Origin: a virus
Length of the DNA stretch: 64,000 nucleotides
Virus record (IMG/VR): IMGVR_UViG_3300008952_002784
Span: 1 to 64,000 of that record
Direction: 5' to 3' (one strand)
Shown: positions 29,888-58,452 of the stretch, piece by piece
Position numbering within the stretch: the first letter of the stretch is position 1
How the letters are laid out: each line of letters opens with the position of its first letter
Position numbers and translations under genes: made by a program
Notes under the pieces: generated by a model
What the model was told of the DNA's origin: nothing
What the model saw: only the letters and a program-made list of their open reading frames with translations
The model's database searches: none

Positions 29888-31843
29888 ATGTTTGGTAACA
29901 GCCCATTTGATTCAGAGCAGCGTAAACTAATAACTGTGCCTGAATCTGCAAAAATAATATTCGTCTCAGACATGTTTGTTGAAGACTACGTAGGGGGAGC
30001 AGAATTGACATCTGAGGCACTAATAGAAGCCTCTCCGTTTGAAGTTTTTAAGTTACATGCTCGTGATGTAGATCTCAGGCTTCTAGAAGAAGCTCAGAAT
30101 TGTCATTGGATATTCGGAAATTTTGCTTCTTTGAATATGGAATTAATTCCAACTATCTGCGCAAATATCAGATACTCTATTTTAGAGTATGATTATAAAT
30201 TCTGCAAGTACAGATCTCCGGAAAAACATTATGCGTTAGAGAATTCTGATTGTGACTGTGTTGATCAGATAAATGGAAAGATGATATCAGCTTTCTTTTA
30301 CGGTGCTAAATCACTTTGGTGGATGTCAGAAAAACAAATGGAGAGATATCACGAATACTTTCCGTTCCTATCTGAAGTCAACAATGTAGTTCTAAGTTCT
30401 GTCTTTGATGATAAATTTTTCTTAGCACTCAAACTCCTCAAGAAGAAAAACAAAGACATTGAGAGAAAGGGGTGGGTCGTTTTAGGATCAGCTAGCTGGA
30501 TTAAGGGAGCAGATGATGCTAAACAGTGGTGCGAAGATAATAATAAAGATTATCAGATACTTTGGGACACACCCTACGAGTATGTTCTAGAAACTTTGGC
30601 AAAATCTGAAGGTTTTGTCTATCTACCTAAGGGCGGTGACACCTGCCCCAGAATGGTAATAGAAGCTAAATTATTGGGTTGTAAATTACACATCAATGAT
30701 TTTGTTGAGCATAAAGATGAGATATGGTTTGACACATCTGATGAATTTGACACTGAGGCTTATCTTTACGCAGCTAGAGACAGATTCTGGGGCGGCATAA
30801 AATCAGATATGGAATGGTGCCCAACACTTAGCGGCTATATAACTACTCTAGACTGTGATAAAAATAATTATCCATGGCAAGCTTCTATTGAGTCGATGTT
30901 GGGCTTTTGTGATGAAGTCGTAGTTATGGATGGCGGCTCTAAAGATGGCACATGGGAAAAACTTCTAGATTGGTCAAGCAAAGAAGACAATTTACATGCG
31001 CATCAAGTCAAGAGAGACTGGTCGCACCCAAGATTCGCAGTTTACGATGGCGCGAACAAAGCACTAGCACGAGATAAATGCAGTATGGATTTTTGCTGGC
31101 AGCAAGATGCAGACGAAATAGTTCATGAGAATGATTTTCAAAAGATCAAGAATCTGATGATATCATTTCCGGGCAATATTGACATTGTTTGTCTTCCAGT
31201 TGTAGAATACTGGGGAGGAGAAGAAAAAGTCAGGATGGATATCAATCCATGGAAGTGGAGGATAAGCAGAAATATGCCTCACATTACACACGGAATCCCA
31301 GGTGCACTGAGACTTAAAGATGAAGATGGTTCACTATATGCTCAACCAGGCACAGACGGATGTGACTACATAGATTCTAATACATATGACCCAATTCCTC
31401 ATGCTACTTTCTACAATACTGAAGCTCACAATTGCAAGATCAAGGCATTAGAGGGAGACACGGTATCACATACAAATTATTCTAAGTGGTTTGAAAGATG
31501 TGTTGATTTACTTCCGACAGTGCATCATTACTCATGGTTTGATTTAACTAGAAAGATTAAGACATACAGAGACTACTGGTCACAACATTGGCAAAGTCTG
31601 TACAATATTGAACAAGAAGATACAGCAGAGAATAACATGTTTTTTCAAAAACCATGGTCAGAAGTATCAGATGATGACATTCAAAGTCTATCAGAAGCAC
31701 TTCGTGATAAAACAGGCGGCTGGGTATTTCACACTCCAATCGATTTTTCGAAACCCAACCCCCATGTAACACTCAAATCAGATCACCCAAAGTATATATG
31801 GTCATGGCTGGGTCGCACTCAAGAGAGCACTAATGAAGGATAA
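29888..31843 (+). CDS. Two-domain glycosyltransferase (GT-B/GT4-like fused to GT-A/GT2-like)
   Basis: N-terminal VGGAE...DTCPRMVIEAKLLGC; C-terminal DEVVVMDGGSKDGT...QQDADE. Confidence 0.8.
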   Translation: MFGNSPFDSEQRKLITVPESAKIIFVSDMFVEDYVGGAELTSEALIEASPFEVFKLHARDVDLRLLEEAQNCHWIFGNFASLNMELIPTICANIRYSILEYDYKFCKYRSPEKHYALENSDCDCVDQINGKMISAFFYGAKSLWWMSEKQMERYHEYFPFLSEVNNVVLSSVFDDKFFLALKLLKKKNKDIERKGWVVLGSASWIKGADDAKQWCEDNNKDYQILWDTPYEYVLETLAKSEGFVYLPKGGDTCPRMVIEAKLLGCKLHINDFVEHKDEIWFDTSDEFDTEAYLYAARDRFWGGIKSDMEWCPTLSGYITTLDCDKNNYPWQASIESMLGFCDEVVVMDGGSKDGTWEKLLDWSSKEDNLHAHQVKRDWSHPRFAVYDGANKALARDKCSMDFCWQQDADEIVHENDFQKIKNLMISFPGNIDIVCLPVVEYWGGEEKVRMDINPWKWRISRNMPHITHGIPGALRLKDEDGSLYAQPGTDGCDYIDSNTYDPIPHATFYNTEAHNCKIKALEGDTVSHTNYSKWFERCVDLLPTVHHYSWFDLTRKIKTYRDYWSQHWQSLYNIEQEDTAENNMFFQKPWSEVSDDDIQSLSEALRDKTGGWVFHTPIDFSKPNPHVTLKSDHPKYIWSWLGRTQESTNEG

Positions 31844-32558
31844 TCGATTTGTTTTCATAATGCCGGCATTCAATGCCGAAGCTACAATTGCCAGAAGTAT
31901 AATGTCAGTTTGGTTTCAAACTCATGAAAACTGGAAGATTATAATTCGTGATGACTGTTCAACAGATAGAACTCCTGATATGGTCAACCTTATCAAGCAG
32001 CAGCTAGCTATCCCTGATGATAAAATATCGCTAACAGTTAATAGTGAAAAGCACTGGGAAGTGAAGAATATTGTTGAGTCTTTGAAAGAATGTGATTCGA
32101 ATGACATTATTTGTAGGCTAGACGGCGATGACTGGCTTTGTGACTGTGATGCGCTCAGTATCATTAACAATCGATACCAGCAGAAAAATTATGACGCAAT
32201 TTGGACAGCACATCGATGGGATTATACACACAATAATATATCCCGGTCATTGCCGACAACCGCAGATCCATACAAACATCAATGGGTCTCTTCACATCTT
32301 AAAACGTTTAGAAAAAGAATCATTGAAGACGTAAAAGATGAAAACTTTAGAGGTCCAGATGGAGATTACTTCAAGAGGATAGGTGATCAAACAATATACT
32401 TGCCAGTATTACATCAAGCCGCCGGCAATTGGCATTATGAGCCAATAGTTGCATATCACTACTCTATAGACATGAGCCCAAATACATTCCAGTCAGATGA
32501 TGCCAAATTTCAGAAGTCCGAGGGTGAATTTCTCCGGACACGAGGTTTTATTTCATGA
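31833..32558 (+). CDS. Glycosyltransferase family 2
   Basis: IMPAFNAE, RDDCSTD and RLDGDDWL. Confidence 0.88.
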   Translation: MKDNRFVFIMPAFNAEATIARSIMSVWFQTHENWKIIIRDDCSTDRTPDMVNLIKQQLAIPDDKISLTVNSEKHWEVKNIVESLKECDSNDIICRLDGDDWLCDCDALSIINNRYQQKNYDAIWTAHRWDYTHNNISRSLPTTADPYKHQWVSSHLKTFRKRIIEDVKDENFRGPDGDYFKRIGDQTIYLPVLHQAAGNWHYEPIVAYHYSIDMSPNTFQSDDAKFQKSEGEFLRTRGFIS

Positions 32559-33481
32559 AAGTATTCTTCAATAGAGTCCCTCGAGATGAACCGTACGGCG
32601 GCGGCAATCAATTTTTATCTGCTATGGTCAAACATCTTGTCAATCATGATCATGAAGTTACTTTCAATCTTGAGGAAAATATTGACATAATATTTTTGAT
32701 GGATCCTCGGCCTGGTGACATAGGATACTCAATTGAGCATGTTTCTAGATATAAATCAGCGCATCCAGAAACTAAAATACTACACAGAGTAAATGAATGC
32801 GACAAAAGAAAAGATACTAGCTTTATCGATAAGATTTTACTAGACTCAGCAAATATTTCTGACGAAGTAGTTTTTATAAGCCAGTGGTTGGCAGACTATT
32901 TTGTGAACGCCGGTTACGACAAAGATTATCATGTAATTTATAATGGCTGCAATGCAGATCATTTCTATCCAGGTAACAGAAAAATAGTTACACATAAACC
33001 GAAATTAGTAACACATCACTGGTCTGACAACTGGATGAAGGGGTTTGATTTGTATACAGAGATAGATCGTTATCTTCAAGACAATGACGACTTTGAATTT
33101 ACGTATGTAGGTAGGTATAATAAAACCTACTCTCCAAGCGCTACATCAATTGTTGGCCCGCTTTCCGGAGCATCACTCGGTAATGAACTAAGAAAGCATG
33201 ACATATATGTTACAGCTAGCAAATTTGAGCCGTGCGGAATGCATCATATTGAAGGCGCTGCGTCAGGAATGCCTGTTATATATCACACTGATACAGGGGG
33301 AATAAAAGAGCTATGCAAACAGCATGGCGAAGAGTACGAGACATTTCATCAGTTTCTTAATGCTATCGATATTATTGTCAAAGATTATAAATCCTATGTA
33401 TCAAAAATTGACACCGAATTTATGAATATTGATAGATGTGTATCACAATACTACAATATAATTGAATCAATGGTGAATTAG
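32555..33481 (+). CDS. Glycosyltransferase (GT4-like)
   Basis: YGGGNQF, KGFD and EPCGMHHIEGAASGMPV (Ex7E). Confidence 0.85.
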   Translation: MKVFFNRVPRDEPYGGGNQFLSAMVKHLVNHDHEVTFNLEENIDIIFLMDPRPGDIGYSIEHVSRYKSAHPETKILHRVNECDKRKDTSFIDKILLDSANISDEVVFISQWLADYFVNAGYDKDYHVIYNGCNADHFYPGNRKIVTHKPKLVTHHWSDNWMKGFDLYTEIDRYLQDNDDFEFTYVGRYNKTYSPSATSIVGPLSGASLGNELRKHDIYVTASKFEPCGMHHIEGAASGMPVIYHTDTGGIKELCKQHGEEYETFHQFLNAIDIIVKDYKSYVSKIDTEFMNIDRCVSQYYNIIESMVN

Positions 33482-34401
33482 TGAATATTCATTTTTCTAA
33501 TGTCAATTTTTCTTCGTCCACGGGACCCAATACATTTGCTGCAAGACTAGCTAGCGAGTTGATGTCATTTGGCCACGAGCTAGTACCAGCTAGTGATCAG
33601 TATGATTCTTTGCTAGCATTTATTGAGCCGGTTACTATTCCACGCCCAAATGCCAAAACAATTCAGCGTCTAGACGGAATTTGGTTCAAGCCAGATGAGT
33701 TTTATATCAAGAATCAACATATCAAGTGGGCATACGATAATTTTGATCACATCATATGGCAGTCTGAGTTTGATAAAAAAATGACAGAGTATCACTGGGG
33801 CGCCCGGGTCGGCTCAGTGATAAGAAATGGAATTGCTATTGAGCGATCGATACCCTCTAATGAAAATTTACTAAAACTTAGAAAGAAATATGACTACCTA
33901 TTTGTTTGTTCTGCCAATTGGCATCGACAAAAGCGCCTAAGAGAAAATATAGATCTATTTCTGAATCTCAAAAAGAACTCAAAGTATGAAAATTCAGGAC
34001 TCATTGTGTTAGGCAATAACCCTGATCATATAGTAGATAATTCTAGTATATACTACGCAGGCTCAGTTCCACACAGCTTATGTCTAGAAATATATTCAGC
34101 AGCAGACTGGATGATACACTTAGCTTGGTTAGATCACTGTCCAAATGTTGTTGTTGAGTCTTTATCACAGCAGTGTCCTGTTATATGCTCTTCTTCAGGG
34201 GGCACAAAAGAAATAGTAAAAAATAACGGATTGATTATCCAAGAAGATAAAGAGTACAAGTATGAGCTTCTAGACTATGATTCTCCCTATAAATTAGATA
34301 TATCTAAAATTACAGACTTGCCAACCATCGATGTATCTTGCGATTATCTCAACATAAACACTATTGCGAAAGAATATGAGCGTATTTGTACTAGCACCTA
34401 A
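33481..34401 (+). CDS. Glycosyltransferase (GT4-like)
   Basis: IRNG, QKRL and DHCPNVVVESLSQQCPVI...GGTKE. Confidence 0.85.
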   Translation: MNIHFSNVNFSSSTGPNTFAARLASELMSFGHELVPASDQYDSLLAFIEPVTIPRPNAKTIQRLDGIWFKPDEFYIKNQHIKWAYDNFDHIIWQSEFDKKMTEYHWGARVGSVIRNGIAIERSIPSNENLLKLRKKYDYLFVCSANWHRQKRLRENIDLFLNLKKNSKYENSGLIVLGNNPDHIVDNSSIYYAGSVPHSLCLEIYSAADWMIHLAWLDHCPNVVVESLSQQCPVICSSSGGTKEIVKNNGLIIQEDKEYKYELLDYDSPYKLDISKITDLPTIDVSCDYLNINTIAKEYERICTST

Positions 34402-35326
34402 AGAAGACTGGATATGTGATAGATTTGTAACTGAGTGGAATCAGGCACAACCCTACCCTACATCAACATCTATAGAAGACTCGAGTGTCATTTGGTTGTT
34501 GGCTGACTGGTGCTGGAATAAAGTAAGTCCCAATCTACTCATACAAAAAAAAGTTGTTGCATCTGTTCACCATATTGTACCTAACAAATTTGATAAACAG
34601 CAGAAAGAAGATTTTCTAGAAAGAGACAAGTACGTCGATTTATATCATGTCCCATGTGAGAAAACAAAAGAGCAAATATTACCGTATACCAAAAAGCCCA
34701 TATGGGTCCAGCCTTTTTGGGTAAATCAAAACATATGGAAGGGGTTATCTAAAAAGTTACGTCAAGATATACGAACTCAATATGGTATTTCTGACAATTG
34801 TTTCCTTATAGGATCGTTCCAGAGAGACACAGAGGGCCATGATCTTAAGAGTCCCAAATTAGAAAAAGGTCCAGATCTTTTTTGTGATGCTGTTGAAGAG
34901 CTTAGAGACTTCTACAAGACAAAGAATGTAGAGGTTCGTGTGCTTCTAGCAGGGTGGCGACGTCAGTATGTCATTCGAAGATTGAAAGATGCTAATATTC
35001 CGTATTACTATTCTGAGCTTCCGCCGATGTCTGACATCAATACATTTTATAATATTTTAGATCTATACATTGTTGCAGCAAGGTTTGAAGGTGGACCACA
35101 ATCAATTGTTGAATGTGCACTTACAAAAACACCAATTGTGTCAACAGATGTAGGAATATCTGATATAATTCTAAGCCCAGGTTCAATATTTCAACCCGGA
35201 AATGTAAAAATGGCTAAGCCTGATGTAGAATATGCATATGAAAGTGTGTCCCAATACTCTATGCCTACCGGATTTATGCCGTTTGTTACAATGTTTGAAA
35301 AGCTCATGAGCACTAGCAATGACTAA
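34376..35326 (+). CDS. Glycosyltransferase (GT4-like)
   Basis: EKGPD and EGGPQSIVECALTKTPIVSTDVG; start moved to ATG 34376. Confidence 0.85.
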   Translation: MSVFVLAPKEDWICDRFVTEWNQAQPYPTSTSIEDSSVIWLLADWCWNKVSPNLLIQKKVVASVHHIVPNKFDKQQKEDFLERDKYVDLYHVPCEKTKEQILPYTKKPIWVQPFWVNQNIWKGLSKKLRQDIRTQYGISDNCFLIGSFQRDTEGHDLKSPKLEKGPDLFCDAVEELRDFYKTKNVEVRVLLAGWRRQYVIRRLKDANIPYYYSELPPMSDINTFYNILDLYIVAARFEGGPQSIVECALTKTPIVSTDVGISDIILSPGSIFQPGNVKMAKPDVEYAYESVSQYSMPTGFMPFVTMFEKLMSTSND

Positions 35327-35663
35327 TCAGCGTCCATGGGGAACGTATACTGTTTTGCACGACCCAGATGACTGCAAAGTTAAAAGAATATCAGTGCTAC
35401 CGGGACAACAGTTAAGCTACCAATATCACCATCATAGATCTGAAGTGTGGGTATTTTTATCAGGCATAGGAAAAGTAATTCTAGACGGGCATGAAATAGA
35501 CGTATCACCTGGAAAGATTGTCCAAATACCCGCCCTGTCTAAACATAGAATTAGAAATACAGGAAACAAGAATCTAGACCTAATTGAAGTACAATTAGGT
35601 GCCTATTTCGGTGAAGATGACATCGTCAGGCTAGAAGATGATTACGACAGAGTACAAACATAG
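35319..35663 (+). CDS. Mannose-6-phosphate isomerase type II cupin domain
   Basis: RPWG, LSYQYHHHRSEVW, HRIRN and IEVQLGAYFGEDDIVRLEDDY. Confidence 0.9.
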   Translation: MTNQRPWGTYTVLHDPDDCKVKRISVLPGQQLSYQYHHHRSEVWVFLSGIGKVILDGHEIDVSPGKIVQIPALSKHRIRNTGNKNLDLIEVQLGAYFGEDDIVRLEDDYDRVQT

Positions 35664-35676
35664 TGAGAGTATTATA

Positions 35677-37605
35677 ATGAGACATATACACATTAGAGAT
35701 AAATTATCTGAATTGAACATAAACCTTGAAGACTTAGCTTTGGGTGACTTCGACTACATAGGAGAATTTACAGCAAAAAAGCAAAGAGAAGCTAGTCATC
35801 CTTACTTCAAAACCCATGGGTGTTTCTTCAGGCCAAACTATGAAAGAGGTATCTTGATATATTCTCTAATAAGAAAATATAACTTGACATCTATGCTTGA
35901 GATCGGCTTCGGTCGTGGGTATGGAACTATGTGTGCTGCTAAGGCATTTCATGATATGGGAATTGAGGGAAAAATTGTAACTATAGATCCAAATTTGGAC
36001 GAAGATTTTGTTAGAAATCTTACACAAGTGTTTCCCAAATCATGGTTTTCAATGATTCAGTTCGCAAAAGGAACATCAAACAATGTTCTGCCTCAAGTAA
36101 AAGAAAATTTCGACATGATATACATTGACGGAGATCATACATACGAGGGTGTAAAATCTGACTGGAATAACTGTAAAGACAAGTTCAATAAATTTTTACT
36201 ATTTGATGATTATCATTTGCCAACCAAGAACGACCCGGGTATACAATGTGCTAAGGCAATTGATGAAATAGATGCACCTAAAGATCTAATCATCATGGAT
36301 AGAAGAATATTTCATGATGATTTGTGCCGCGAAGATAAAGAGGTTGACTACGGACAAGTTCTTATTGAACGAGAGGGTGATGCATTACACAGCATGCCAA
36401 AAAACCAGTCACCCTTTTCTGAAGTCTGGAGCCCGGAAGATAATGTTCCAGAAGCAGATAGTGAATTGATGTCCTATAGAAATGAGTGGATGGATGAAGA
36501 CGAAGATGTCGACGCAATATTTCCAAGTAGCATTACTATGGGTGCATTAGAATCATCTCTAGTGAATAGAGAAAAATCATGGCCAAAAAGAGGTGAATCA
36601 TACATCAAGCTAATGAATTCACTATCTGATTTTTCTGCAGATTTAGTTAGCAAGTCTGATTCTAGCAATATTGATGTCGACAAAATAACTAGTTTGTCTA
36701 GCAACATGGACGATCCTGTGTTTATATTTGGAAACATGAAGGCCGGTACTTCATTATTGTTGTGTCTCTTAGATGGTCACAATAGCTTACTAGCACTCCC
36801 AGTTGATTCTCATCTGATGAAGCATCACTCACCTGAGGCAACAGTGCCATCCAGGACAATGATCAACGAGGCAAGATCACGCTGGCTGGGGAAACTTATA
36901 AGCCCTACGGGTTACAGCCCATACCTACTATTGGGGAAAGATAGAGGTGCATATCAGAAGTTCACTGATGCTTACGAATGGGCTTCTATGAACCTGCTAG
37001 ACGAAGCTCCATTCTCATTATTCAAGGTAGCCGCGTCAGCGTTCGCATTATCATATCCACATAAGCTCAATAAAGATTTTCGTGTTGTAGAAAAAACACC
37101 AGAAAATGAAAGATTCTTTTCGCAGATAAGTAAAAACTTTACTAATGCATCTTATGTACACGTGCTTAGAAACCCTATTGACAATGTTGCTAGTATGAAA
37201 AAATTGTGTGAATCTCGAGACGAATCATTCAACTTGAGGCATGTTGCACATTCTATCAACACTGGCTTAGAATTAGCTATAGACAATTCTGCATCTTCAG
37301 AACAGTATAAGCTGGTGAAATATGAAGATTTAGTTGAAAACACAGAAGATGTTATGCGTGAAGTTTCTAAGCACGTTGGAATAAGTTATACAAAATCACT
37401 TTTAAAACCAACTTCACTCAAATTGTCAAATAAGTCAAATTCAATGTTCGATTCTAGAAGAGTTACTGGCGAAATATGTGTTGAAGAAAAAGAAGAAAGG
37501 CAGAATAGAATAAATAGCACACTCACAGACAGTGAAATATCTGAAGTCATCAGAATCTGTGGTGAGAATGCTAAGAAGCTAGGCTACACTTTAGATTCTG
37601 CATGA
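35677..37605 (+). CDS. Class I SAM methyltransferase (Methyltransf_24-like) fused to a sulfotransferase
   Basis: LEIGFGRG...IYIDGDHTYEGV; then PVFIFGNMKAGTSLL (5'-PSB), EKTP, VLRNPIDNVAS (3'-PB) and KYEDLV. Confidence 0.85.
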   Translation: MRHIHIRDKLSELNINLEDLALGDFDYIGEFTAKKQREASHPYFKTHGCFFRPNYERGILIYSLIRKYNLTSMLEIGFGRGYGTMCAAKAFHDMGIEGKIVTIDPNLDEDFVRNLTQVFPKSWFSMIQFAKGTSNNVLPQVKENFDMIYIDGDHTYEGVKSDWNNCKDKFNKFLLFDDYHLPTKNDPGIQCAKAIDEIDAPKDLIIMDRRIFHDDLCREDKEVDYGQVLIEREGDALHSMPKNQSPFSEVWSPEDNVPEADSELMSYRNEWMDEDEDVDAIFPSSITMGALESSLVNREKSWPKRGESYIKLMNSLSDFSADLVSKSDSSNIDVDKITSLSSNMDDPVFIFGNMKAGTSLLLCLLDGHNSLLALPVDSHLMKHHSPEATVPSRTMINEARSRWLGKLISPTGYSPYLLLGKDRGAYQKFTDAYEWASMNLLDEAPFSLFKVAASAFALSYPHKLNKDFRVVEKTPENERFFSQISKNFTNASYVHVLRNPIDNVASMKKLCESRDESFNLRHVAHSINTGLELAIDNSASSEQYKLVKYEDLVENTEDVMREVSKHVGISYTKSLLKPTSLKLSNKSNSMFDSRRVTGEICVEEKEERQNRINSTLTDSEISEVIRICGENAKKLGYTLDSA

Positions 37606-39354: not shown

Positions 39355-39365
39355 AAGGATATACT

Positions 39366-50330: not shown

Positions 50331-51147
50331 AACATCAGTATTTGGTGGGACAGGTTTTATAGGATCAAACTATGTAAATCTAAAACCAGACGAGTGTATT
50401 GTGATCCCAAGAGAATCCAGAAAGCCAATGTCTGATTCAATTCTCTACTTCATAAGTACAACACATAACTACCATGTGCTTGATGATGTTCATAAAGATG
50501 TCTCTACCAATTTGAGTGTCTTATTAGAAGTTCTAGAACAGTGCAAAGACAGAGACGTTGTATTTAATTTCATCAGCTCATGGTTTGTTTACGGTGATAC
50601 GACTTTGCCGGCATTAGAAACTAGCTGCTGTAAACCCAAGGGATTCTACTCTATCACAAAATTATGTGCTGAGCAGCTAATAGAATCTTTTTGTAAAACG
50701 TACAATATACATTATAGAATTCTACGTTTGTGCAATGTTTACGGCACAGGAGATATTCTTGCTTCTAAAAAGAAAAATGCTTTGCAGTATCTAATAGATC
50801 AGATAAAGTGTGACAAACCCATCGACTTATATCACGGGGGAGACTTTATAAGAGATTATCTTCATGTAACAGATGTTTGTCAAGCAATTGATTTAATTCT
50901 AAAAGAAGGCGACTTGGATCAGATTTATAATGTTGGCAGCGGAATTCCGCACAGGTTTCGTGATATGATTGATGAAGCAATTAATACTGTAAATTCAAAA
51001 ACAGTCATTACTGATGTCTCCCCACCAGATTTTCACAATATAGTTCAGGTAAAAGACATGTTTTTAGATACACAGAAATTAATCAATTTGGGATTTGAAC
51101 CAAAGATATCAATTAATGAAGGAATAAGTTTGTTATGTCAACCTTGA
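50320..51147 (+). CDS. NAD-dependent epimerase/reductase (extended SDR)
   Basis: GGTGFIG, YSITK, RLCNVYG and RDYLHVTD. Confidence 0.88.
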   Translation: MKTKTSVFGGTGFIGSNYVNLKPDECIVIPRESRKPMSDSILYFISTTHNYHVLDDVHKDVSTNLSVLLEVLEQCKDRDVVFNFISSWFVYGDTTLPALETSCCKPKGFYSITKLCAEQLIESFCKTYNIHYRILRLCNVYGTGDILASKKKNALQYLIDQIKCDKPIDLYHGGDFIRDYLHVTDVCQAIDLILKEGDLDQIYNVGSGIPHRFRDMIDEAINTVNSKTVITDVSPPDFHNIVQVKDMFLDTQKLINLGFEPKISINEGISLLCQP

Positions 51148-52454: not shown

Positions 52455-53389
52455 GTTTGAATCAAGTAGTAGCAATTACAGGGTGTGCCGGTTTCATCGG
52501 CAGTCATGCAACAGATCTGTATTTACAGTCTGGTTACATGGTACACGGAATTGATAAATTCACATATGCAGCGAATGAAAAGAATTTAGCTGCTGCTTTG
52601 AATAACTCTAATTTTGTGCTAAGCAGAACAGATATTTGTAATCAAAGTACTCTAGAATCGATATTGACTACTACCCCGTGGATAATCAATTTTGCAGCAG
52701 AGACACATGTTGATAACTCAATAGATTCATCAGAAGCATTCATCAAATCAAACATAATGGGTGTTAAATCTATTCTAGAAGCATGTAGAAAAACAAACAC
52801 TAAATTGCTTCATGTGTCGACAGACGAAGTTTATGGATCGATACAATATGGGTCGCACCATGAAGTGTCTAGATTCAATCCAAAGAATCCATACTCTGCA
52901 ACAAAAGCAGCTGCAGAACACCTCATAAAATCATATTCAAATACACACGGTATTGAATATATCATAGTCAGACCGTCTAATAATTTTGGGCCAAGGCAGC
53001 ATTCAGAAAAGCTTCTACCCACAATTGTAAGATCGCTCAAATCTGGCAAAAAGATTCCATTATATGGTGACGGTACTAACGTTAGAGACTGGTTATATGT
53101 AGAAGACAATGTAGCTGCTATTCGCTATATAATGGAAAACTCTGATCTAAATCAGACGTACAACATAACTAGAAAAAAAGAAATTACAAATATTCAGATA
53201 TGTCGCCTTATATGTGATATTTTAGAAAAAGACTTTGATAGTAGCGTTGAGTTTGTTGATGATAGACTTGGCCATGATTTTAGATACTCAATTACTAATC
53301 AAAAACTAAAAGACTTGGGGTACACTTCAAATAGCGTGTTTGAAGATGTGCTAGCTAAAACAGTTAAGAAATTATGGAGAGACGCATGA
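52451..53389 (+). CDS. rfbB: dTDP-glucose 4,6-dehydratase
   Basis: GCAGFIG, FAAETHVDNSI, HVSTDEVYG, YSATKA and DRLGHDFRY. Confidence 0.93.
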   Translation: MSLNQVVAITGCAGFIGSHATDLYLQSGYMVHGIDKFTYAANEKNLAAALNNSNFVLSRTDICNQSTLESILTTTPWIINFAAETHVDNSIDSSEAFIKSNIMGVKSILEACRKTNTKLLHVSTDEVYGSIQYGSHHEVSRFNPKNPYSATKAAAEHLIKSYSNTHGIEYIIVRPSNNFGPRQHSEKLLPTIVRSLKSGKKIPLYGDGTNVRDWLYVEDNVAAIRYIMENSDLNQTYNITRKKEITNIQICRLICDILEKDFDSSVEFVDDRLGHDFRYSITNQKLKDLGYTSNSVFEDVLAKTVKKLWRDA

Positions 53390-54234
53390 TAGGAATAGTA
53401 GGGCAGGGATTTGTGGGGTCGGCTATTAGAGAGGGCCTCAAGGACTTTTACAATATATTGACTTATGATATCGATGAGTCTAAGTGCAATAGTACACACA
53501 AAGAAGTGTGCAGAAAATCTGAGATTATATTTGTGTGCATACCTACCCCGATGAGAAAGTCAGGGGAGTGTGACACTAGACTTTTAGAAAGTGTGATAGC
53601 AGGCATTGAAGCTGAATGTACCACCCTAGATCAAAGTCCCACGTTAGTTATAAAGTCGACAGTCCCACCTGGTACTACTAAGCGAATAAATAGCACTAGC
53701 AAACTAGATGTATGCTTTAGTCCTGAGTTCTTGACAGAGGCAAATTCATTCAATGACTTTATTAATCAAACAAGAATAATACTTGGTGGTAATCCTGACG
53801 TGAATTGCCGCGGTGCCAAGCGTGTCAAATCAATGTTTCGAAAACCGTTTCCAGAAATACCAATTATCATAACTAAGTCAGAGACTGCCGAAATGGTAAA
53901 GTATTTCATCAATTGCTTCTTAGCAACTAAAGTGACATTTGCAAATGAAATGTATCAATTATGTTCTGCATCTAGCTTAGACTATGATAAAGTCTGTGAG
54001 TACGCACTTTATGACACAAGAATTGGCCAGAGTCATGTTACAGTACCCGGTCCAGATGGTGACTTTGCTTTTGGGGGACATTGTTTACCAAAAGACTTAG
54101 CAGCAATGATACACTTTGGATCTAAAAACAATGTAGACACAAGTTTGCTATCCTCTGTACAGACAAAAAACAATGAGTTGAGATCAAATAGAGACTGGGA
54201 ATCTATGTCTGGGAGGGCGGTTAGCAATGACTAG
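53386..54234 (+). CDS. Short UDP-glucose/GDP-mannose dehydrogenase-family protein (no C-terminal domain)
   Basis: GQGFVG, KSTVPPG, SPEFL, AEMVKY...NE and FGGHCLPKD; start at the ATGA overlap at 53386. Confidence 0.85.
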   Translation: MIGIVGQGFVGSAIREGLKDFYNILTYDIDESKCNSTHKEVCRKSEIIFVCIPTPMRKSGECDTRLLESVIAGIEAECTTLDQSPTLVIKSTVPPGTTKRINSTSKLDVCFSPEFLTEANSFNDFINQTRIILGGNPDVNCRGAKRVKSMFRKPFPEIPIIITKSETAEMVKYFINCFLATKVTFANEMYQLCSASSLDYDKVCEYALYDTRIGQSHVTVPGPDGDFAFGGHCLPKDLAAMIHFGSKNNVDTSLLSSVQTKNNELRSNRDWESMSGRAVSND

Positions 54235-55093
54235 AGTATTAGTGACAGGAGGCTTGGGCTTTGTAGGGTCACATTTGGTTGAGCAGCTGTTGTATGATCC
54301 TGAAAATGAAATTACTGTAATAGATAATCTGTGCTCAGAATCAAGCAACATAAACAACAAGCGAGAGGGTGTTACATATTGGATTGATGATATACGCAAT
54401 CTCAATACATATCGATTTGAATCTAACTTTGATGTAATATATCATTTAGCTGCACTAGCTAGAATTCAACCAAGTTTTGAAGATCCTCTTAGATACTTCT
54501 CTATAGATGCAATGGGAACTGCAGAAGTTCTAGAATTTGCCAGAAGCTCAAATGCAAAAGTAATATATGCAGGATCTAGTTCTGCTTACGGTGGACCCAA
54601 ACTAAATCCGTATTCATTTGCAAAATATACAGGAGAGGAATTGTGCAAAATGTACTCAGAAGTCTATGGGCTGAGTACTGTCACAGCAAGATTTTTTAAT
54701 GTATACGGTGTTAGACAGCCAACTAGCGGCCCATACGCTACAATTGTAGGAATATTTGAAAATTTGACGAGAGCGGGTCAAAAATTGACAGTTACTGGCG
54801 ACGGAACTCAACGACGAGATTTTACACATGTCAAAGATATAGTTCGTGGGTTTACTTTGTTATCAGAAAAAGAATATTCAGGAGATGTATTCAATCTAGG
54901 CACGGGAACAAATTACTCTATAAATGAGTTGGCAGAAATGTTCGGCGGCAAAATAGAATATATACCGGCCCGCCCCGGGGAAGCAAAGAACACCCTGGCA
55001 GATATTTCCAACATCACAGCGAAGACAGGTTGGATGCCATTGTTACGACTAGAGAAGTATGTATCAACATGGCTGTCTGCAAATATTTTATAG
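54227..55093 (+). CDS. NAD-dependent epimerase (GalE/WbpP-like)
   Basis: TGGLGFVGSH, HLAA, YSFAK, RFFNVYG and GDGTQRRDFTHV. Confidence 0.9.
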   Translation: MTRVLVTGGLGFVGSHLVEQLLYDPENEITVIDNLCSESSNINNKREGVTYWIDDIRNLNTYRFESNFDVIYHLAALARIQPSFEDPLRYFSIDAMGTAEVLEFARSSNAKVIYAGSSSAYGGPKLNPYSFAKYTGEELCKMYSEVYGLSTVTARFFNVYGVRQPTSGPYATIVGIFENLTRAGQKLTVTGDGTQRRDFTHVKDIVRGFTLLSEKEYSGDVFNLGTGTNYSINELAEMFGGKIEYIPARPGEAKNTLADISNITAKTGWMPLLRLEKYVSTWLSANIL

Positions 55094-55102: not shown

Positions 55103-55131
55103 TTGAACTAAGTTGTAATGCATGTTATAAT
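55103..55131 (+). promoter_or_regulatory. Promoter TTGAAC-N17-TATAAT with extended -10 TG
   Basis: Near-consensus sigma-70 promoter upstream of the nuclease gene. Confidence 0.72.
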
Positions 55132-55159
55132 TCATATGAACAATAAAAAAAGGCAGCAT

Positions 55160-55984
55160 ATGAAAGAACTACCCACCGGAAAGCCCCACGTTTCTTATAG
55201 TGAAGTGAGATGCTGGAAAGAATGTCCATGGCGTCACAAGTTAGTACATATTGATAAAATATCTATTTTTGAGCCATCACCCTATTTAGACTTTGGCACC
55301 AACGTTCATGAAGGTTGCGAAAGCTTCTTGAATACCGGCAACATTCCCAAAGAGGCACTTCTGAACAATATTAGAAATGCATGGGAAAAAAATGGATTTG
55401 ATGACCCCGACTGGGTTAAGAAGCAACCCGGGTGGTACAAATACTCTCCTGTTGAAGAGTGGTGTACATGGGCATCCAATATGTGGGATGACATTCCACG
55501 ATACTTAGATGAAACGTTTCCAGGGTGGGAGCGTGTCAGTGCAGAAGAAATGCTCTATGAGGAAATCCCTGGCAAAGATGCTCTATTCAAGGGCTACATC
55601 GATGTAATTATAAAAGTACCCAGAAAAAATGGCACATGGAAATACTGGATACTTGATTGGAAGACATCAAAAGCATACGGTTGGGATAGGAGAAAAAAGC
55701 AAGATTTTCTAACTCAAGCACAAATAATTCTCTATAAAGACTACTGGGCAACTAAAAATGATATTCCGCTCCGAGACGTGGGGTGTGGTTTCATACTTTT
55801 GAAAAGAGGCGGAAAACCTGGGAATATGTGTGATCTTGTACAAGTATCGTCAGGGCCAAAGTCTATAGAGAAGGCTCAAAAGATGGTGACTAGCATGATA
55901 AGCACCATCAGAAGAAGCTTTTTTATAAAAAATAGAGAATCATGCAGGTTTTGTGAATTTGCTAATACAGAACACTGCAAATAA
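55160..55984 (+). CDS. PD-(D/E)XK exonuclease, Cas4/RecB-like with Fe-S cysteines
   Basis: SYSEVRCWKECP, FGTNVH, GYIDV, ILDWKT and CRFCEF...C; start placed downstream of the promoter. Confidence 0.85.
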   Translation: MKELPTGKPHVSYSEVRCWKECPWRHKLVHIDKISIFEPSPYLDFGTNVHEGCESFLNTGNIPKEALLNNIRNAWEKNGFDDPDWVKKQPGWYKYSPVEEWCTWASNMWDDIPRYLDETFPGWERVSAEEMLYEEIPGKDALFKGYIDVIIKVPRKNGTWKYWILDWKTSKAYGWDRRKKQDFLTQAQIILYKDYWATKNDIPLRDVGCGFILLKRGGKPGNMCDLVQVSSGPKSIEKAQKMVTSMISTIRRSFFIKNRESCRFCEFANTEHCK

Positions 55985-56038: not shown

Positions 56039-57286
56039 ATGACAAAAAAATACAAAGTATTAATGCTTTCAGATCACGCTTTAAGCACATCTGGAGTGGG
56101 CTGTCAAAGTAGATTTTTGATTGACGGCTTAATAAAGAAGGGCTGCTGGTCATTTCGACAATTTGGCGCGGCAATTAAGCATGATGATTATAGAATGATT
56201 ACTGTCAATGATGACTTTATTATTAAGCCAATTGATGGATTCGGCAATAGAGAGCTAATCAGATCAACTTTAGTCGCAGAAAAACCAGATGTTGTCCTAA
56301 TCTTTACAGACCCCAGATTCTTTATTTGGCTCTGGGAAATGGAAGATGAAATACATCAAGTTTGTCCTATTGCTTATTGGCATGTATGGGATAATCTTCC
56401 TGTTCCCACCTTCAATAAAGTTTTGTATGATTCTACAGACTTAATTAACTGTCACTCTTATCTTACATATGAATTTTTAAAAGATCTAGCCCCGGGGAGA
56501 GCAAATTTTGTTCCTCATTCATTACCTGACGGATTGTTTTATCCCATCAAGCGAGATGAGCAAATCAAGTGGAGAAATGAAGTTATTGGGCGTGAAAGAG
56601 CAGATCATTTTGTAGCATTTTGGGTAAATAGAAACGCTAAAAGAAAGCGACCCAATGATCTACTATTAGCATGGAAGACATTCATAGACATGCTAGAAGA
56701 GAAGCATGGTCACAAGAAGGCATCACTACTGATGCATACTCAACCAGATGATCCTGAGGGACCTAATTTATATGCCACATGTGACTTATTAGGCATAAAA
56801 GATAACGTTGTTTTCTCACCTGACAGGCTTGAATTTGAAAAAATGAATATATTGCACAACATAAGTGATGTATGTGTCAATGTAAGCTATGCAGAAGGAT
56901 TTGGTTTGTCAACACTAGAAGCAATGTCATGTGCTAAGCCAATTATCGCACTCAAGACAGGGGGACTTACGCGTCAAGTTGTAGATCATAGAGATGAATC
57001 AGAGAACGGAATTGCACTCCCAGTAGAATTCAAGTCATTGGTAGGCTCTCAACAGGTACCGTACATATATGAAGATTATTGTTCAGCTGAGACTACTGCT
57101 AAAGCTTTCTTAGACATGTACGAAATGGGACATGAGAAGAGAGTAGAATTGGGAAAGAAAGCAAAGGAGTACGTAGACTCTGAATTCAATCATCAAACAA
57201 CAATCGACTTGTGGCATGACACTTTGCTAGACTTAGTTGAAAATAAACAGAGTAACAATAAGCTCTGGGAGATTCAAGAAATATGA
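56039..57286 (+). CDS. Glycosyltransferase family 4
   Basis: NRNAKRKR and EGFGLSTLEAMSCAKPII. Confidence 0.9.
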   Translation: MTKKYKVLMLSDHALSTSGVGCQSRFLIDGLIKKGCWSFRQFGAAIKHDDYRMITVNDDFIIKPIDGFGNRELIRSTLVAEKPDVVLIFTDPRFFIWLWEMEDEIHQVCPIAYWHVWDNLPVPTFNKVLYDSTDLINCHSYLTYEFLKDLAPGRANFVPHSLPDGLFYPIKRDEQIKWRNEVIGRERADHFVAFWVNRNAKRKRPNDLLLAWKTFIDMLEEKHGHKKASLLMHTQPDDPEGPNLYATCDLLGIKDNVVFSPDRLEFEKMNILHNISDVCVNVSYAEGFGLSTLEAMSCAKPIIALKTGGLTRQVVDHRDESENGIALPVEFKSLVGSQQVPYIYEDYCSAETTAKAFLDMYEMGHEKRVELGKKAKEYVDSEFNHQTTIDLWHDTLLDLVENKQSNNKLWEIQEI

Positions 57287-58452
57287 TGAAAAAAAGAGTA
57301 CTTGTTAGAGCACCACTACTGACAATGTCAGGATACGGCGTACACTCTAGACAGATCTATAGATGGGCAAGATCTAGATCTGATTTCGATGTCGAAGCTC
57401 AAATATTGTCATGGGGAATGACACCCTGGATGCTTAACGAAGAGTCTGAAGACGGTTTGATAGGCGATATCATAAGTAGAACATGCAAGCCTGTAGAGGG
57501 TAATAAGTGGGACGTTACTGTACAAGTTCAATTACCGGATGAGTGGGATCCCAATTTGGGAACCATCAATATAGGTGTTACAGCTGCAGTTGAGTCAGAT
57601 AGGTGTAATCCAAATTGGATTGACAGATGTAATAAAATGACTGCAGTTGTTGTACCCTCAAGACATACAAAAAAAGTACTTGAAGATACAGGTAGTGTTA
57701 CTGTGCCTATTCATGTAATTCCGGAAACATATCACAAGTCAGTAACGAATGACGATCTTTCCCCGCTTGACATTGACTTGTCGACAAGCTTTAATTTTCT
57801 TTTATTTGCTCAATTCACAGGCCAGACACCGGATACAGATAGAAAGAATTTATTCAATACAGTCAAGTGGATGTGTGAGACATTCACCGGAGATTCTGAA
57901 GTTGGAATTATTCTTAAGACAAACTCAGGTTGCAATACTAAAATTGATCGATCAATAACAGAAAAATTATTGAGAAATCTAATATCAGAAGTTAGAAAAG
58001 GACCATATCCTCGATTTTATTTTTTGCATGGAGCAATGTCTGAAGAAGAAGTATCTTCGCTTTATAAAGTACCGTCAGTAAAAGCCCTAGTATCACTCAC
58101 AAGAGGTGAAGGGTTTGGGCTACCTCTTTTAGAGGCTGCTGCTAGTGGACTACCGGTAATTGCAACTGGATGGAGCGGTCACCTAGATTTTCTAAAATAC
58201 GGAAAGTTTATCGCTGTCAAGCATAGATTAACAGAAATTCCAAAAGCACGAGCCGACGGCAGAGTTTGGGTTGAAAATTCTAGATGGGCTGAACCGATAG
58301 AAGATGATGCTAAGAAGTGTTTGCAGAGATTCCGGAAAAAGCCCAGTCTTCCCAAACAGTGGGCTAACGATTTGAAAGAAAAGATTAGAAAAAACTTTTC
58401 TGAGAAGTCTATTAATCAACACTATAACAAGCTTATGAGGAATCTCACCTAA
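57283..58452 (+). CDS. Glycosyltransferase family 4
   Basis: SGYGVHSR, DRKN and RGEGFGLPLLEAAASGLPVIATGWSGHLDF. Confidence 0.9.
   Translation: MMKKRVLVRAPLLTMSGYGVHSRQIYRWARSRSDFDVEAQILSWGMTPWMLNEESEDGLIGDIISRTCKPVEGNKWDVTVQVQLPDEWDPNLGTINIGVTAAVESDRCNPNWIDRCNKMTAVVVPSRHTKKVLEDTGSVTVPIHVIPETYHKSVTNDDLSPLDIDLSTSFNFLLFAQFTGQTPDTDRKNLFNTVKWMCETFTGDSEVGIILKTNSGCNTKIDRSITEKLLRNLISEVRKGPYPRFYFLHGAMSEEEVSSLYKVPSVKALVSLTRGEGFGLPLLEAAASGLPVIATGWSGHLDFLKYGKFIAVKHRLTEIPKARADGRVWVENSRWAEPIEDDAKKCLQRFRKKPSLPKQWANDLKEKIRKNFSEKSINQHYNKLMRNLT

Follow-up and report, generated by a model that had tools for sequence, protein, structure and literature searches.

A soluble glycosylation gene island with a replaceable cassette between fiber and baseplate genes of a large marine phage

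Examination of the 64-kb window, the whole stretch of DNA analyzed here, revealed that a large marine phage devotes a 28-kb block to soluble enzymes that make and attach sugars (Table 1). The contig represents approximately 40% of a jumbo myovirus genome, and the family to which this phage belongs is widespread and uncultured. Exactly 31 ORFs lie between positions 29888 and 58452, all on the plus strand, and 21 of the 30 junctions overlap, in keeping with an earlier sequence-only reading of the locus as 31 co-oriented, mostly overlapping ORFs. At seven further junctions the ORFs are no more than 25 bp apart, the widest gap measures 57 bp, and this is not exceeded as the gene array continues into the baseplate genes. 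Terminator-like sites along the array were no more frequent than expected by chance. The placement between fiber and baseplate genes was likewise borne out, by weak tail-fiber and baseplate PHROG matches upstream and gp25- and gp6-like proteins downstream. The upstream pair has a serine plus threonine content of 21 to 22% and lies in a fiber region that varies among relatives, and phoH is found approximately 8 kb upstream of the island. The four proteins directly downstream of the island, which gave no Pfam or PHROG match, are present in 78 to 80 of 80 related loci; the TM segment of the 100-aa protein was located by a Kyte-Doolittle scan. GC content is uniform over the island and its flanks and matches the rest of the contig which, together with synteny in 26 family members, argues that the island is no assembly chimera.

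Table 1 Features of the island and its flanks
Position	Strand	Feature	Evidence or remark
22865..29499	+	Two large fiber/baseplate-like proteins, 1426 and 784 aa; upstream flank	Weak PHROG matches: baseplate assembly, tail fiber
29500..29887	.	388-bp non-coding gap ahead of island; possible promoter region	Gap list
29888..31843	+	Left frame gene, 651-aa two-part protein: N half alpha/beta fold without assignment, C half GT2/GT-A	
31833..35326	+	Four GTs: GT2 (31833), GT4 (32555, 33481, 34364)	Pfam
35319..35663	+	Mannose-6-phosphate isomerase (MPI)-type cupin, 114 aa	PF01050, E 3.8e-33
35638..37605	+	Methyltransferase (Methyltransf_24)-sulfotransferase fusion, 655 aa	Pfam
37602..38618	+	GT (Glyco_trans_1_2), one weak N-terminal hydrophobic segment	Pfam, Kyte-Doolittle
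38593..40160	+	Two ORFs (253, 264 aa) without assigned function	
40171..40884	+	Methyltransferase (Methyltransf_24)	Also weak CmcI/rhamnosyl O-methyltransferase match
40889..41320	+	143-aa ORF; possible cupin, e.g. sugar ketoisomerase/epimerase (lead)	PHROG cysteine dioxygenase, E 0.034
41304..41915	+	Formyltransferase, ArnA-N/dTDP-amino-sugar formyltransferase-like	Pfam, NCBIfam
41918..43033	+	Radical SAM enzyme	PF04055, E 1.6e-25
43043..43762	+	Short DegT-family aminotransferase-like protein, 239 aa	PF01041
43743..44543	+	GT11 fucosyltransferase-like GT	PF01531, E 8e-32
44601..45329	+	242-aa ORF without assignment	Common to a few relatives
45313..46077	+	GT2	Pfam
46094..47071	+	GDP-mannose 4,6-dehydratase (Gmd)	TIGR01472, 369 bits (cut-off 415)
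47053..48799	+	GT-B/GT4-like GT (47053) and possible GT2-like protein (47951)	Atlas
48796..53389	+	Deoxy-sugar block: RmlA-like 48796, RmlD-like 49515, compact SDR 50320, RfbH-like PLP enzyme 51135, RmlB-like 52451	
53374..55093	+	UDP-glucose dehydrogenase-like (286 aa, without C-terminal domain) and SDR epimerase/dehydratase	Near-core pair
55118..55984	+	PD-(D/E)XK nuclease, no glyco gene	Syntenic with frame GTs
56039..58452	+	Right frame, two GT4 enzymes, 415 and 389 aa	Conserved family-wide
58458..61634	+	Small single-TM protein (100 aa) and three proteins without assignment (277, 128, 567 aa)	Conserved
61996..64000	+	gp25-like and gp6-like baseplate wedge proteins; downstream flank	

Glycosyltransferases (GTs) are numerous, as the sequence-only reading had claimed, but its count of about 14 GT or GT-like genes fell to 11 to 12. 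Ten are supported by Pfam (29888, 31833, 32555, 33481, 34364, 37602, 43743, 45313, 56039, and 57283), an eleventh (47053) was found to be GT-B/GT4-like by Atlas structure search (TM 0.75-0.80), and the twelfth (47951) is an Atlas lead, with GT2 in 14-25% of cluster members; neither 47053 nor 47951 had a Pfam, PHROG, or PDB sequence match. The 11 to 12 island GTs are mutually unrelated. The nucleotide-sugar enzymes named earlier were recovered at the family level, as RmlA-, RmlB-, RmlD-, and RfbH-like proteins, Gmd, a UDP-sugar dehydrogenase-like protein, SDR epimerases, and an MPI-type cupin, the last aligning to the C-terminal end of the TIGR01479 profile. A second cupin (40889) is a lead, and the "oxygenase" of the earlier reading fell away, since the sole hint of it was the cysteine dioxygenase match of the same ORF. 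Also present at the family level are the expected decorating enzymes: two methyltransferase domains, a sulfotransferase, a formyltransferase, two DegT aminotransferases, and a radical SAM enzyme, for which no NCBIfam equivalog was found. All NCBIfam matches of island enzymes lie under the equivalog cut-offs. The ORFs at 38593 and 39366 matched neither Pfam nor PHROG, and 39366 has one homolog among related loci. The gene at 55118 was rejected as a sugar gene.

The block has a fixed frame, which in 26 family members consists of the 651-aa GT2-domain protein on one side and the two GT4 enzymes beside baseplate genes on the other. Homologs of the 651-aa protein were found in 33 of 53 relatives, 25 of them full-length (53-67% identity) and seven split into two ORFs. 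Its match to PF13704 was 27.7 bits, barely over the cut-off of 27.5, and its AF2 model was poor (pLDDT 55), with a C-domain resembling GT-A enzymes; the N-domain gave an hhalign probability of 0.3% against a GT4 profile. The right-hand GT4 pair occurs in all 80 loci, with 241 relatives in IMG/VR, and a tblastn search with the frame GT4 matched immuto, Mel-JY01, LR756508, and RM378. The frame GT4 was modeled by AF2 with a pLDDT of 80, and the nearest folds to this model were MshA, sucrose-phosphate synthase, a chlorovirus NY2A GT, and WaaG, with BshA and PimB' also among the neighbors. The nuclease next to the pair was found in 64 of 80 loci, and in immuto and Mel-JY01 a nuclease also lies close upstream of the GT pair, with one gene intervening.

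Cassette content between the frame genes is largely replaced between relatives, even the closest, which has only 7 of 36 cassette ORFs in common, mostly at the edges. The cassette spans 24 kb here and 1-32 kb among family members, with 20-32 kb cassettes being common, and in one relative the frame is present and the cassette wholly absent. The GTs between 31833 and 35326 have homologs in only one to six of 80 related loci, Gmd in 37, and the near-core pair in 44 and 41. In 13 records, all 51 PF00534 matches fell within the locus, 26 in the frame and 25 in the cassette, and none elsewhere.

The earlier statements that the island encodes no multi-pass membrane protein and that the priming transferase, flippase, and polymerase are missing both held. 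By Kyte-Doolittle scan, no island protein has more than one hydrophobic segment, and the one multi-TM protein of the contig is a giant tape-measure-like protein outside the island. Searches of 54 related contigs, totaling 4.59 Mb and including no relative more than 76% complete, with our own contig at about 40%, gave no match for the undecaprenyl-phosphate priming transferase (PF02397) or the flippase Wzx (PF01943) and none over the cut-off for Wzy/ligase (PF04932); WecA (PF00953) was not found in the 22 related contigs searched. In two relatives of 75-76% completeness, hydropathy scanning revealed only small proteins or the tape-measure-like protein as multi-TM, and the small hydrophobic proteins matched no flippase family. 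Priming and export genes were not found anywhere in the family, within genomes at most 76% complete.

The gene content, the protein solubility, the frame-plus-cassette architecture, and this family-wide lack of priming and export genes are supported directly. We propose, with a probability of roughly 0.4, that the block encodes a phage-autonomous, cytoplasmic pathway that glycosylates an acceptor carried by the phage, probably virion proteins. The frame would attach a core glycan to a conserved acceptor that the phage encodes, with fibers, baseplate, or capsid the likeliest, and the cassette would supply dTDP-6-deoxy, amino, and formamido hexoses, GDP-6-deoxyhexoses, a 3,6-dideoxy branch, and UDP-uronic-acid derivatives. 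From these, approximately eight cassette GTs, two O-methyltransferases, and the sulfotransferase would build a strain-specific outer glycan. Lipid carrier, flippase, and polymerase would not be needed because soluble enzymes would add the sugars singly before lysis, and the island would be co-expressed late with the baseplate genes. The frame GT4 co-occurs with the capsid lineage in phages of three host phyla (Flavobacterium, Microcystis, and Rhodothermus), which is most easily explained by a phage-borne acceptor. Against virion proteins as the acceptor, the nuclease-GT-GT module of immuto and Mel-JY01 lies among replication and lysis genes rather than structural genes, and thus baseplate adjacency is not conserved. 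The interpretation given in the sequence-only reading is thereby upheld in part, for its soluble pathway genes and missing priming and export genes, and not for an unusual scale or for DNA as the acceptor.

A serious rival, although we consider it rather unlikely, is remodeling of the host envelope, in which phage enzymes would build a foreign oligosaccharide on the host undecaprenyl-phosphate primer and a host flippase, ligase, or ABC exporter would display it, altering the LPS, capsule, or glycoprotein surface. Superinfection would then be blocked, or progeny kept from sticking to debris, and cassette diversity would track host serotype. The island enzymes belong to families commonly encoded in O-antigen and capsule loci. 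In bacteria, the usual acceptors of such GT4 and GT2 enzymes are undecaprenyl-linked sugars, and WecA, Wzx, or ABC exporters could be provided by the host. The LPS enzyme WaaG and PimB' are among the fold neighbors of the modeled frame GT4, besides the soluble-acceptor enzymes, and the variable cassette adjoins variable fiber genes, as expected if both track the host surface. This is also the standing view of comparable cyanomyovirus clusters (PMC3037559), with similar clusters published as host-surface genes (PMC9602691, PMC12801897), and one P-SSM2 LPS cluster is reported near phoH (Sullivan et al., PMC3037559), to which our island is also close. Nonetheless, the host flippase and ligase would have to accept a foreign unit, the priming transferase, Wzx, Wzy/ligase, and WecA were not found in up to 54 related contigs, and the frame GTs are kept across hosts of three phyla. 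Repeat-unit O-antigens usually need fewer GTs than 11 to 12, a number of distinct GTs that would be high for a single repeat unit and that fits a long non-repeating glycan.

It is improbable, in our estimation, that the glycan is attached to a non-virion phage or host protein, a lipid, or a small molecule, or that the cassette is mostly recent, weakly selected cargo. The best folds for the frame GT4 model (MshA, sucrose-phosphate synthase, and BshA) glycosylate small soluble acceptors, and the short UDP-glucose dehydrogenase-like and DegT-like enzymes are unusual in length. For cyanophages, Sullivan et al. raised the question of "stuffer DNA", and the role of the clusters is putative (PMC3037559). 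Against cargo of little function, none of the 31 closely spaced ORFs is disrupted, the GC content does not depart from that of the contig, and the SDRs and the dehydrogenase-like protein carry catalytic motifs. Of 27 homologs of the latter at 45% identity or more, 25 keep its short form, at 277-299 aa, which argues for selection.

Glycosylation of hydroxymethylated pyrimidines against restriction, with the adjacent nuclease destroying unmodified DNA, is very improbable, even with a PD-(D/E)XK nuclease near the two GT4 genes in distant relatives, phage DNA reported with up to trisaccharides added by GT-plus-epimerase clusters (preprint 10.1101/2023.12.21.572611), and a ThyA-family enzyme in three of five large relatives, the one copy tested (G002) being closest to CMP 5-hydroxymethylase. 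LC-UV-MS of DNA from the cultured relative immuto_2-6A, which was also among the tblastn matches of the frame GT4 (the locus described here for immuto comes from a sister strain), gave dA, dC, dT, and fdPreQ1 replacing dG, with sugar-bearing nucleosides not reported in the available part of the preprint (10.1101/2023.04.13.536721). The G002 hydroxymethylase is more than 100 kb from the glyco locus with its own UDP-galactopyranose mutase gene adjacent, and none was found on our contig or in the relative G001. A Tet/JBP search gave no match in five large relatives, the control genomes being equally silent, and 11 to 12 GTs with sulfo- and methyltransferases are far above the DNA glycan systems described in preprint 10.1101/2023.12.21.572611.

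Bacterial O-antigen and capsule loci and flagellin islands resemble the phage locus in their conserved flanks, swapped serotype-like center, and enzyme families. Flagellin glycosylation islands are likewise soluble-only; O-antigen and capsule loci include genes for a priming transferase and for Wzx/Wzy or an ABC exporter, whereas the priming transferase, Wzx, and Wzy were not found here. Mycobacteriophage glycosylation systems have few genes and are not known to include nucleotide-sugar pathways. Modification of capsid and tail-tube proteins inside the cell is ascribed to their soluble GTs (Freeman et al. 2023, via PMC12619734), similarly with phage-encoded enzymes and no export step, but a sequence relationship was not detected, with mycobacteriophages making up none of the 12 records matching the frame GT4 by tblastn. 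Giant viruses, in their chlorovirus capsid and Megavirinae fibril glycans, likewise use their own rare bacterial-like sugar pathways and soluble GTs, with gene sets that differ by clade in Megavirinae (PMC10117803), and among the fold matches of the frame GT4 the chlorovirus NY2A GT ranks sixth (TM 0.68-0.72). They differ in infecting eukaryotes and belonging to another realm, and their glycans and acceptors are chemically established, as compared to genes alone here.

The claim of an unusually large scale for a bacteriophage is weakened by the cassettes of 20-32 kb in the phage's own family and by precedent in cyanomyoviruses. S-SSM7 and P-SSM2 carry large "LPS" clusters (PMC3037559), 13 GTs are reported for S-SCSM2R (PMC12801897), and S-SCSM1 has a cluster of approximately 19 kb without an annotated exporter, with no annotated flippase or polymerase in a 41-kb stretch. 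As in our phage, these big aquatic myoviruses devote tens of kb to GTs, nucleotide-sugar enzymes, and methyltransferases, and function is putative on both sides; S-SCSM1 further shares Gmd (44% identity), a stand-alone MPI cupin, and GT11 fucosyltransferases. The phage lineage is nonetheless distinct (capsid protein approximately 30% identical), and the genes here form a single replaceable cassette within a conserved GT frame between fiber and baseplate genes, whereas hli, phoH, and tRNA genes are the reported neighbors of cyanophage clusters (PMC3037559). Unlike the cyanophage clusters, the island encodes the methyltransferase-sulfotransferase fusion, which had no tblastn match in 50,697 phage records and occurs in none of 80 related loci. 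The nearest cultured relative is the Flavobacterium phage vB_FspM_immuto (Immutovirus), whose capsid protein shows 44% identity across 76% of the query. In its 160-kb genome the locus lies among replication and lysis genes, and the 651-aa frame protein was not found there by tblastn. Like our phage, immuto encodes a PD-(D/E)XK nuclease upstream of a GT pair, of which one member is homologous to the frame GT4 (35% identity). Its cassette, with GT2, aminotransferase, methyltransferase, and epimerase genes over approximately 9 kb, follows on the downstream side of this pair.

The main new result is that a conserved frame and a swappable cassette make up the glycosylation locus across dozens of related contigs. 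The frame comprises a 651-aa protein with a GT2 domain and two GT4 glycosyltransferases (GTs), and the replaceable genes lie between them. Two large relatives share the gene order found here: PhoH, the fibre genes, the 651-aa homolog, a variable stretch, a nuclease, the GT4 pair, a small TM protein, three conserved unknowns, gp25 and gp6. Homologs were counted in 80 IMG/VR loci retrieved with the family-conserved frame GT4 out of 241 relatives; these loci reach only 10 kb upstream, and therefore long cassettes are under-sampled at their distant end. Genes from 56039 to 62501 had homologs in 70 to 80 of the 80 loci, except a 96-aa ORF at 61642 (3/80). The nuclease followed with 64, then a short dehydrogenase-like gene (44/80), the neighbouring SDR (41/80), and the RmlB-like (40/80) and Gmd (37/80) genes. 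All other cassette genes had homologs in 0 to 22 loci, and in at most eight for all but one SDR. Conserved edges around a replaced centre are the pattern of bacterial O-antigen loci, which the glycosylation locus resembles.

Homologs of the 651-aa protein were present in 33 of 53 related records, split into N- and C-terminal ORFs in seven of these. Twenty-six family members allowed the interval between its end and the first frame GT4 to be measured. One had 1.0 kb, four had 3.6 kb, six had 9-14 kb and 15 had 20-32 kb; the median was 20.6 kb, and the contig studied here has 24.2 kb. Since the nuclease is all that the 1-kb case contains, the frame can occur with no cassette at all; the 3.6-kb cases have, besides the nuclease, a GT2, an SDR and the short dehydrogenase-like gene. 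In the closest relative with sequence, the frame proteins were 58-74% identical to those here, and its 31-kb cassette of 36 ORFs had only seven with a homolog in the island (four above 50% identity), and these seven lie mostly near the edges. The Glycos_transf_1 family gave 51 matches in 13 records, all inside the locus (frame 26, cassette 25, elsewhere 0).

The window opens a single contig of 136,953 bp, on which 116 of 123 called ORFs are on the + strand. Gene content identifies a myovirus, with PhoH, a helicase and a SpoVR-, YeaH- and PrkA-like triad upstream of the island and a large terminase, a 621-aa major capsid protein and two tail-sheath paralogs further down. CheckV rated the contig at 40% of a genome and relatives of 255-257 kb at 75-76%, from which the full genome probably exceeds 300 kb. 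At least 599 relatives of the capsid protein were found in IMG/VR, the best 80 at 62-72% identity; the cultured kin by capsid are all distant, namely Flavobacterium phage vB_FspM_immuto (44% identity), Microcystis phage Mel-JY01 and Rhodothermus phage RM378. A search of the phage collection for near-identical DNA gave no match, and the 567-aa flank protein had no close relatives in IMG/VR. GC content is even over the island and both flanks, and this uniformity together with the conserved synteny ruled out an assembly chimera with a bacterial O-antigen locus. The PrkA-like protein is 29-34% identical to Thermus-phage 'serine kinase' genes and to proteins of several huge uncultured phages. The sheath paralogs are adjacent, and since sheath families match only the C-terminal ~315 aa, each has a very large N-terminal extension. 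An HNH/homing-endonuclease gene directly follows the major capsid gene.

The island holds exactly 31 + strand ORFs, with 21 of 30 junctions overlapping and a largest gap of 57 bp, in line with the 31 co-oriented, mostly overlapping ORFs of the sequence-only reading. That reading had also counted about 14 GT or GT-like genes; the number came to 11-12, with ten assigned by Pfam, one by structure and one lead. The sequences of the last two gave nothing meaningful against the PDB. The island GTs have almost no detectable mutual similarity and are thus not recent duplicates. The claimed nucleotide-sugar enzymes were recovered at family level, all slightly under NCBIfam equivalog cut-offs. Among the proposed decorating enzymes, the methyl-, sulfo- and formyltransferases, the radical SAM enzyme and the DegT-like protein were found, and the oxygenase was unsupported.

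Features of the locus and contig (single numbers are ORF start coordinates in the window; L-numbers denote stretches of the contig, G000, or of related records)
Feature	Position	Strand	Basis
GT2-type	29888 (just over cut-off), 31833, 45313	+	Pfam
GT4/GT1-type	32555, 33481, 34364, 37602, 56039, 57283	+	Pfam
GT11	43743	+	Pfam
GT-B enzyme	47053	+	Atlas structure search, TM 0.75-0.80 to GT4 clusters
Weak GT2 lead	47951	+	Atlas structure search
RmlA-like	48796	+	family level
RmlB-like	52451	+	family level
RmlD-like	49515	+	family level
Gmd	46094	+	family level
RfbH-like PLP enzyme	51135	+	family level
Two further SDRs	50320, 54227	+	
Short UDP-glucose-dehydrogenase-like protein	53374-54234	+	
Stand-alone MPI-type cupin	35319	+	
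Methyltransferase-sulfotransferase fusion	35638	+	
Second methyltransferase	40171	+	
Formyltransferase	41304	+	
Radical SAM enzyme	41918	+	
Short DegT-like protein	43043-43762	+	
PD-(D/E)XK nuclease	55118-55984	+	
Nuclease of immuto	L089:12801-13742		
Nuclease of Mel-JY01	L198:9932-10828		
96-aa ORF	61642-61932		
gp25- and gp6-like baseplate proteins	61996-64348		
SpoVR-, YeaH- and PrkA-like triad	10796-15301		
Tail-sheath paralogs (1064 and 1012 aa)	contig G000 121634-124828, 124877-127915; L004:4634-10915		
HNH/homing-endonuclease gene	contig G000 115280-116695 (L003:17280-18695)		
ThyA-family protein and UDP-galactopyranose mutase of the large relative G002	L098:6249-8389; contig 197249-199392		

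Several island proteins are unusual. The UDP-glucose-dehydrogenase-like protein (286 aa) keeps the Rossmann motif and the GGxCxxKD cysteine motif and lacks the C-terminal UDP-binding domain. Because 25 of its 27 homologs are 277-299 aa long, it is predicted to be a functional short form rather than a pseudogene. The DegT-family protein has only 239 aa, and the immuto cassette carries a 214-aa 'WecE' annotation (L089:21528-22172). ORF 40889 gave only a weak cupin lead, and 38593, 39366 and 44601 received no family assignment. The RfbH-like protein was compared with bacterial genomes for a hint of donor or host, and none of 19 pattern matches was confirmed. ORF 55118 was rejected as a glycosylation gene, being the nuclease that shortly precedes the two frame GT genes. 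A nuclease of the same type is found in immuto and Mel-JY01, with one gene intervening before the GT pair, a long-range synteny with sugar enzymes.

The gene array passes without interruption to the baseplate genes and has terminator-like sites at no more than chance frequency, which suggests that the island may be co-transcribed with late genes. The T4 late-promoter motif TATAAATA has two sites on the contig and none in the island. Sigma-70-like promoter sites exceeded the shuffle mean only in 27000-46900 (104 versus 77.4, sd 7.1). The two longest non-coding gaps of the window are 18663-19242 (580 bp) and 29500-29887 (388 bp, directly before the island); neither contains the T4-type motif.

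The absence of priming and export machinery, proposed by the sequence-only reading, was supported by profile searches and hydropathy scans. In a Kyte-Doolittle scan, no island protein had more than one hydrophobic segment, and the sole strongly multi-hydrophobic protein on the contig was a 1658-aa tape-measure-like protein. Profile searches for initiating transferases found PF02397 (Bac_transf) in 0 of 5 and 0 of 49 records and the WecA/MraY-type PF00953 in 0 of 22. Wzx (Polysacc_synt, PF01943) was found in 0 of 54, and Wzy_C (PF04932) in 0 of 54 over the cut-off, the one 18-bit match being a sequence with stop codons. Controls were positive in each of these searches, with 10 and 12 of 14 control genomes for the initiating-transferase profiles. 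With these profiles, which cover initiating transferases, Wzx and Wzy_C but not ABC transporters such as ABC2_membrane, no priming or export gene was found on the contig or in up to 54 related records, each an incomplete genome (4.59 Mb in all). Hydropathy scans of two relatives at 75-76% completeness found only small proteins and a tape-measure-like protein. The small multi-TM proteins of G002 were considered as flippases and proved MotA/ExbB-like, fatty-acid-hydroxylase-like or unassigned.

Hydrophobic proteins (167-566 aa) did occur in 17 of the 80 related loci. One lies elsewhere, and 16 (190-566 aa, in L116, L130, L160, L163, L190 and others, of at least three unrelated groups) occupy a variable slot between the 567-aa protein and gp25, where the contig has the 96-aa ORF with a Thr/Pro/Gly-rich tail. 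Considered as hidden exporters, these gained no support: among ten that were scanned, the one Pfam match was to a portal family at 14 bits, and three inspected sequences were Pro/Ile/Leu-rich and not transporter-like. The locus has the clustered nucleotide-sugar genes and several GTs of an O-antigen or capsule locus and, in the records searched, lacks its priming and flippase/polymerase genes. It has what is found in virion glycosylation, phage-encoded soluble GTs without lipid-carrier machinery.

We read the locus as most likely a two-layer cytoplasmic glycosylation system. The frame, in which the two GT4 enzymes join a two-part protein whose C-domain is GT-A, would lay down a common core. 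A degenerate GT-B domain was considered for the N half of the 651-aa protein and gained no support (hhalign probability 0.3%); the AF2 model of the protein is too poor to decide. The AF2 model of the frame GT4 (pLDDT 80) had as nearest folds the retaining GT4 enzymes MshA, sucrose-phosphate synthase, a chlorovirus NY2A GT, BshA, WaaG and PimB', and these modelled neighbours do not tell the acceptor. The cassette would supply special sugars through putative branches: a dTDP-6-deoxy and amino-formamido branch (RmlA/RmlB-like, a possible cupin, DegT, formyltransferase), a GDP-6-deoxyhexose branch (MPI cupin, Gmd, an SDR, GT11), a 3,6-dideoxy branch via the RfbH-like enzyme, and a UDP-uronic-acid branch. 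Cassette GTs, methyltransferases and the sulfotransferase may then build a strain-specific outer part. We infer that a set of 11-12 unrelated GTs is better suited to a single long glycan without repeats than to a repeat unit that is polymerised.

As to where this glycan goes, a far-reaching reading, tentatively held at a probability of about 0.35, is that a widespread marine jumbo phage family wears a serotype-like coat in which four conserved GT domains place a common core on virion proteins in the cytoplasm and a recombining cassette (0-31 kb) sets a strain-specific outer glycan. Frame and capsid lineage are conserved together, even out to phages that infect Flavobacterium, Microcystis and Rhodothermus. 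Few surface acceptors are common to hosts of three phyla, whereas the phages have their own proteins in common, which makes a phage-borne acceptor the simpler reading. S/T-rich tracts in the fibre-like proteins are candidate glycosylation sites only. If such a coat exists, the outer glycan of this member would be methylated, formylated and sulfated, surface chemistry would vary among related phages in the way O-antigen varies among bacteria, and particles would bear an antigen-like, hypervariable layer on which host receptors, grazers or particle stickiness may act as shaping forces.

Remodelling of the host surface, in which phage GTs build a glycan shown on the host envelope, is a serious alternative, because a lipid carrier primed by the host could be extended by soluble GTs, with the remaining steps left to host exporters. 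It is the published view of similar cyanophage clusters in the available text of PMC3037559, PMC9602691 and PMC12801897. The position beside baseplate genes, moreover, is not kept in immuto and Mel-JY01, whose modules are surrounded by replication and lysis genes. A different acceptor, or cargo under weak selection, is a further possibility, against which stand intact ORFs, retained motifs and a short dehydrogenase-like protein of conserved length.

Glycosylation of DNA by the island GTs, the second option of the sequence-only reading, is unlikely given the immuto nucleosides and a missing or distant hydroxymethylase. LC-UV-MS of immuto DNA detected dA, dC, dT and fdPreQ1 only, according to the accessible part of a preprint (10.1101/2023.04.13.536721). 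DNA glycan systems, as the available portion of Pyle et al. describes them (preprint, 10.1101/2023.12.21.572611), consist of a handful of genes near a hydroxymethylase or dioxygenase. ThyA-type hydroxymethylase matches (PF00303) occurred in three of five records searched, with none on the contig or on G001, another large relative. The hydroxymethylase-like gene of G002 lies more than 100 kb from its glycosylation locus, well beyond the distance of about 10 kb to a GT that is taken to mark a DNA glycan cluster, and beside its own UDP-galactopyranose mutase. PF12851 (5-methylpyrimidine dioxygenase) gave 0 of 5 records, with control genomes silent too. The G002 ThyA-family protein scored best against CMP 5-hydroxymethylase (150 bits versus at most 86 for thymidylate synthases) and is directly followed by the mutase gene (425 bits); from sequence, the pair looks like a separate DNA-hypermodification module, possibly for a galactofuranosylated hydroxymethyl-pyrimidine.

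A literature search found no description of the frame-plus-cassette arrangement. New here are the lineage, the arrangement with its 1-32-kb length variation, and the family-wide absence of priming and export genes among incomplete records. Big glycan clusters of large aquatic phages have been noted since 2005-2010 and are still filed as "LPS genes" without test. The conserved frame, the swappable cassette and the lack of priming or export genes open the choice between virion coat and host surface to a clean experiment, and the question is sharply testable in the cultured relative immuto, which carries the frame. A glycan on the virion would mean marine phage particles with variable sugar coats, bearing on host recognition, decay, aggregation and viral-particle chemistry. 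The cassettes are also a source of rare-sugar enzymes.

Compared by description only, the recently named 'moraphages', an aquatic jumbo phage lineage, have compatible features in PhoH, gp25, gp6 and jumbo size, and the four core GT orthogroups given in the available text (PMC12619734) stand beside four conserved GT-type units here if the split frame gene is included. That available text (PMC12619734) does not use 'sugar', 'rhamnose' or 'hypervariable'. No homology to the characterised mycobacteriophage GTs emerged from a tblastn search with the frame GT4, the sole GT queried, in which 12 phage records matched and none was a mycobacteriophage. Like the 'LPS' clusters of cyanomyoviruses, the island is a multi-kb cluster of GT and GDP/dTDP-sugar genes in an aquatic T4-like myovirus. 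However, the contig lies outside that lineage, its capsid protein being about 30% identical to cyanophage capsids, and cyanomyovirus insertion sites are near hli, phoH and tRNAs, whereas the site here is between fibre and baseplate genes; phoH 8 kb upstream of the island is a partial likeness. The scale, which had been called unusually large for a bacteriophage, has precedents in comparable clusters. Such clusters account for most of the extra genome size of S-SSM7 and P-SSM2 (available text of PMC3037559), and 13 GTs are reported for S-SCSM2R (available text of PMC12801897). The S-SCSM1 cluster of ~19 kb has an MPI cupin, Gmd, fucose synthase and about nine GTs, with no annotated exporter.
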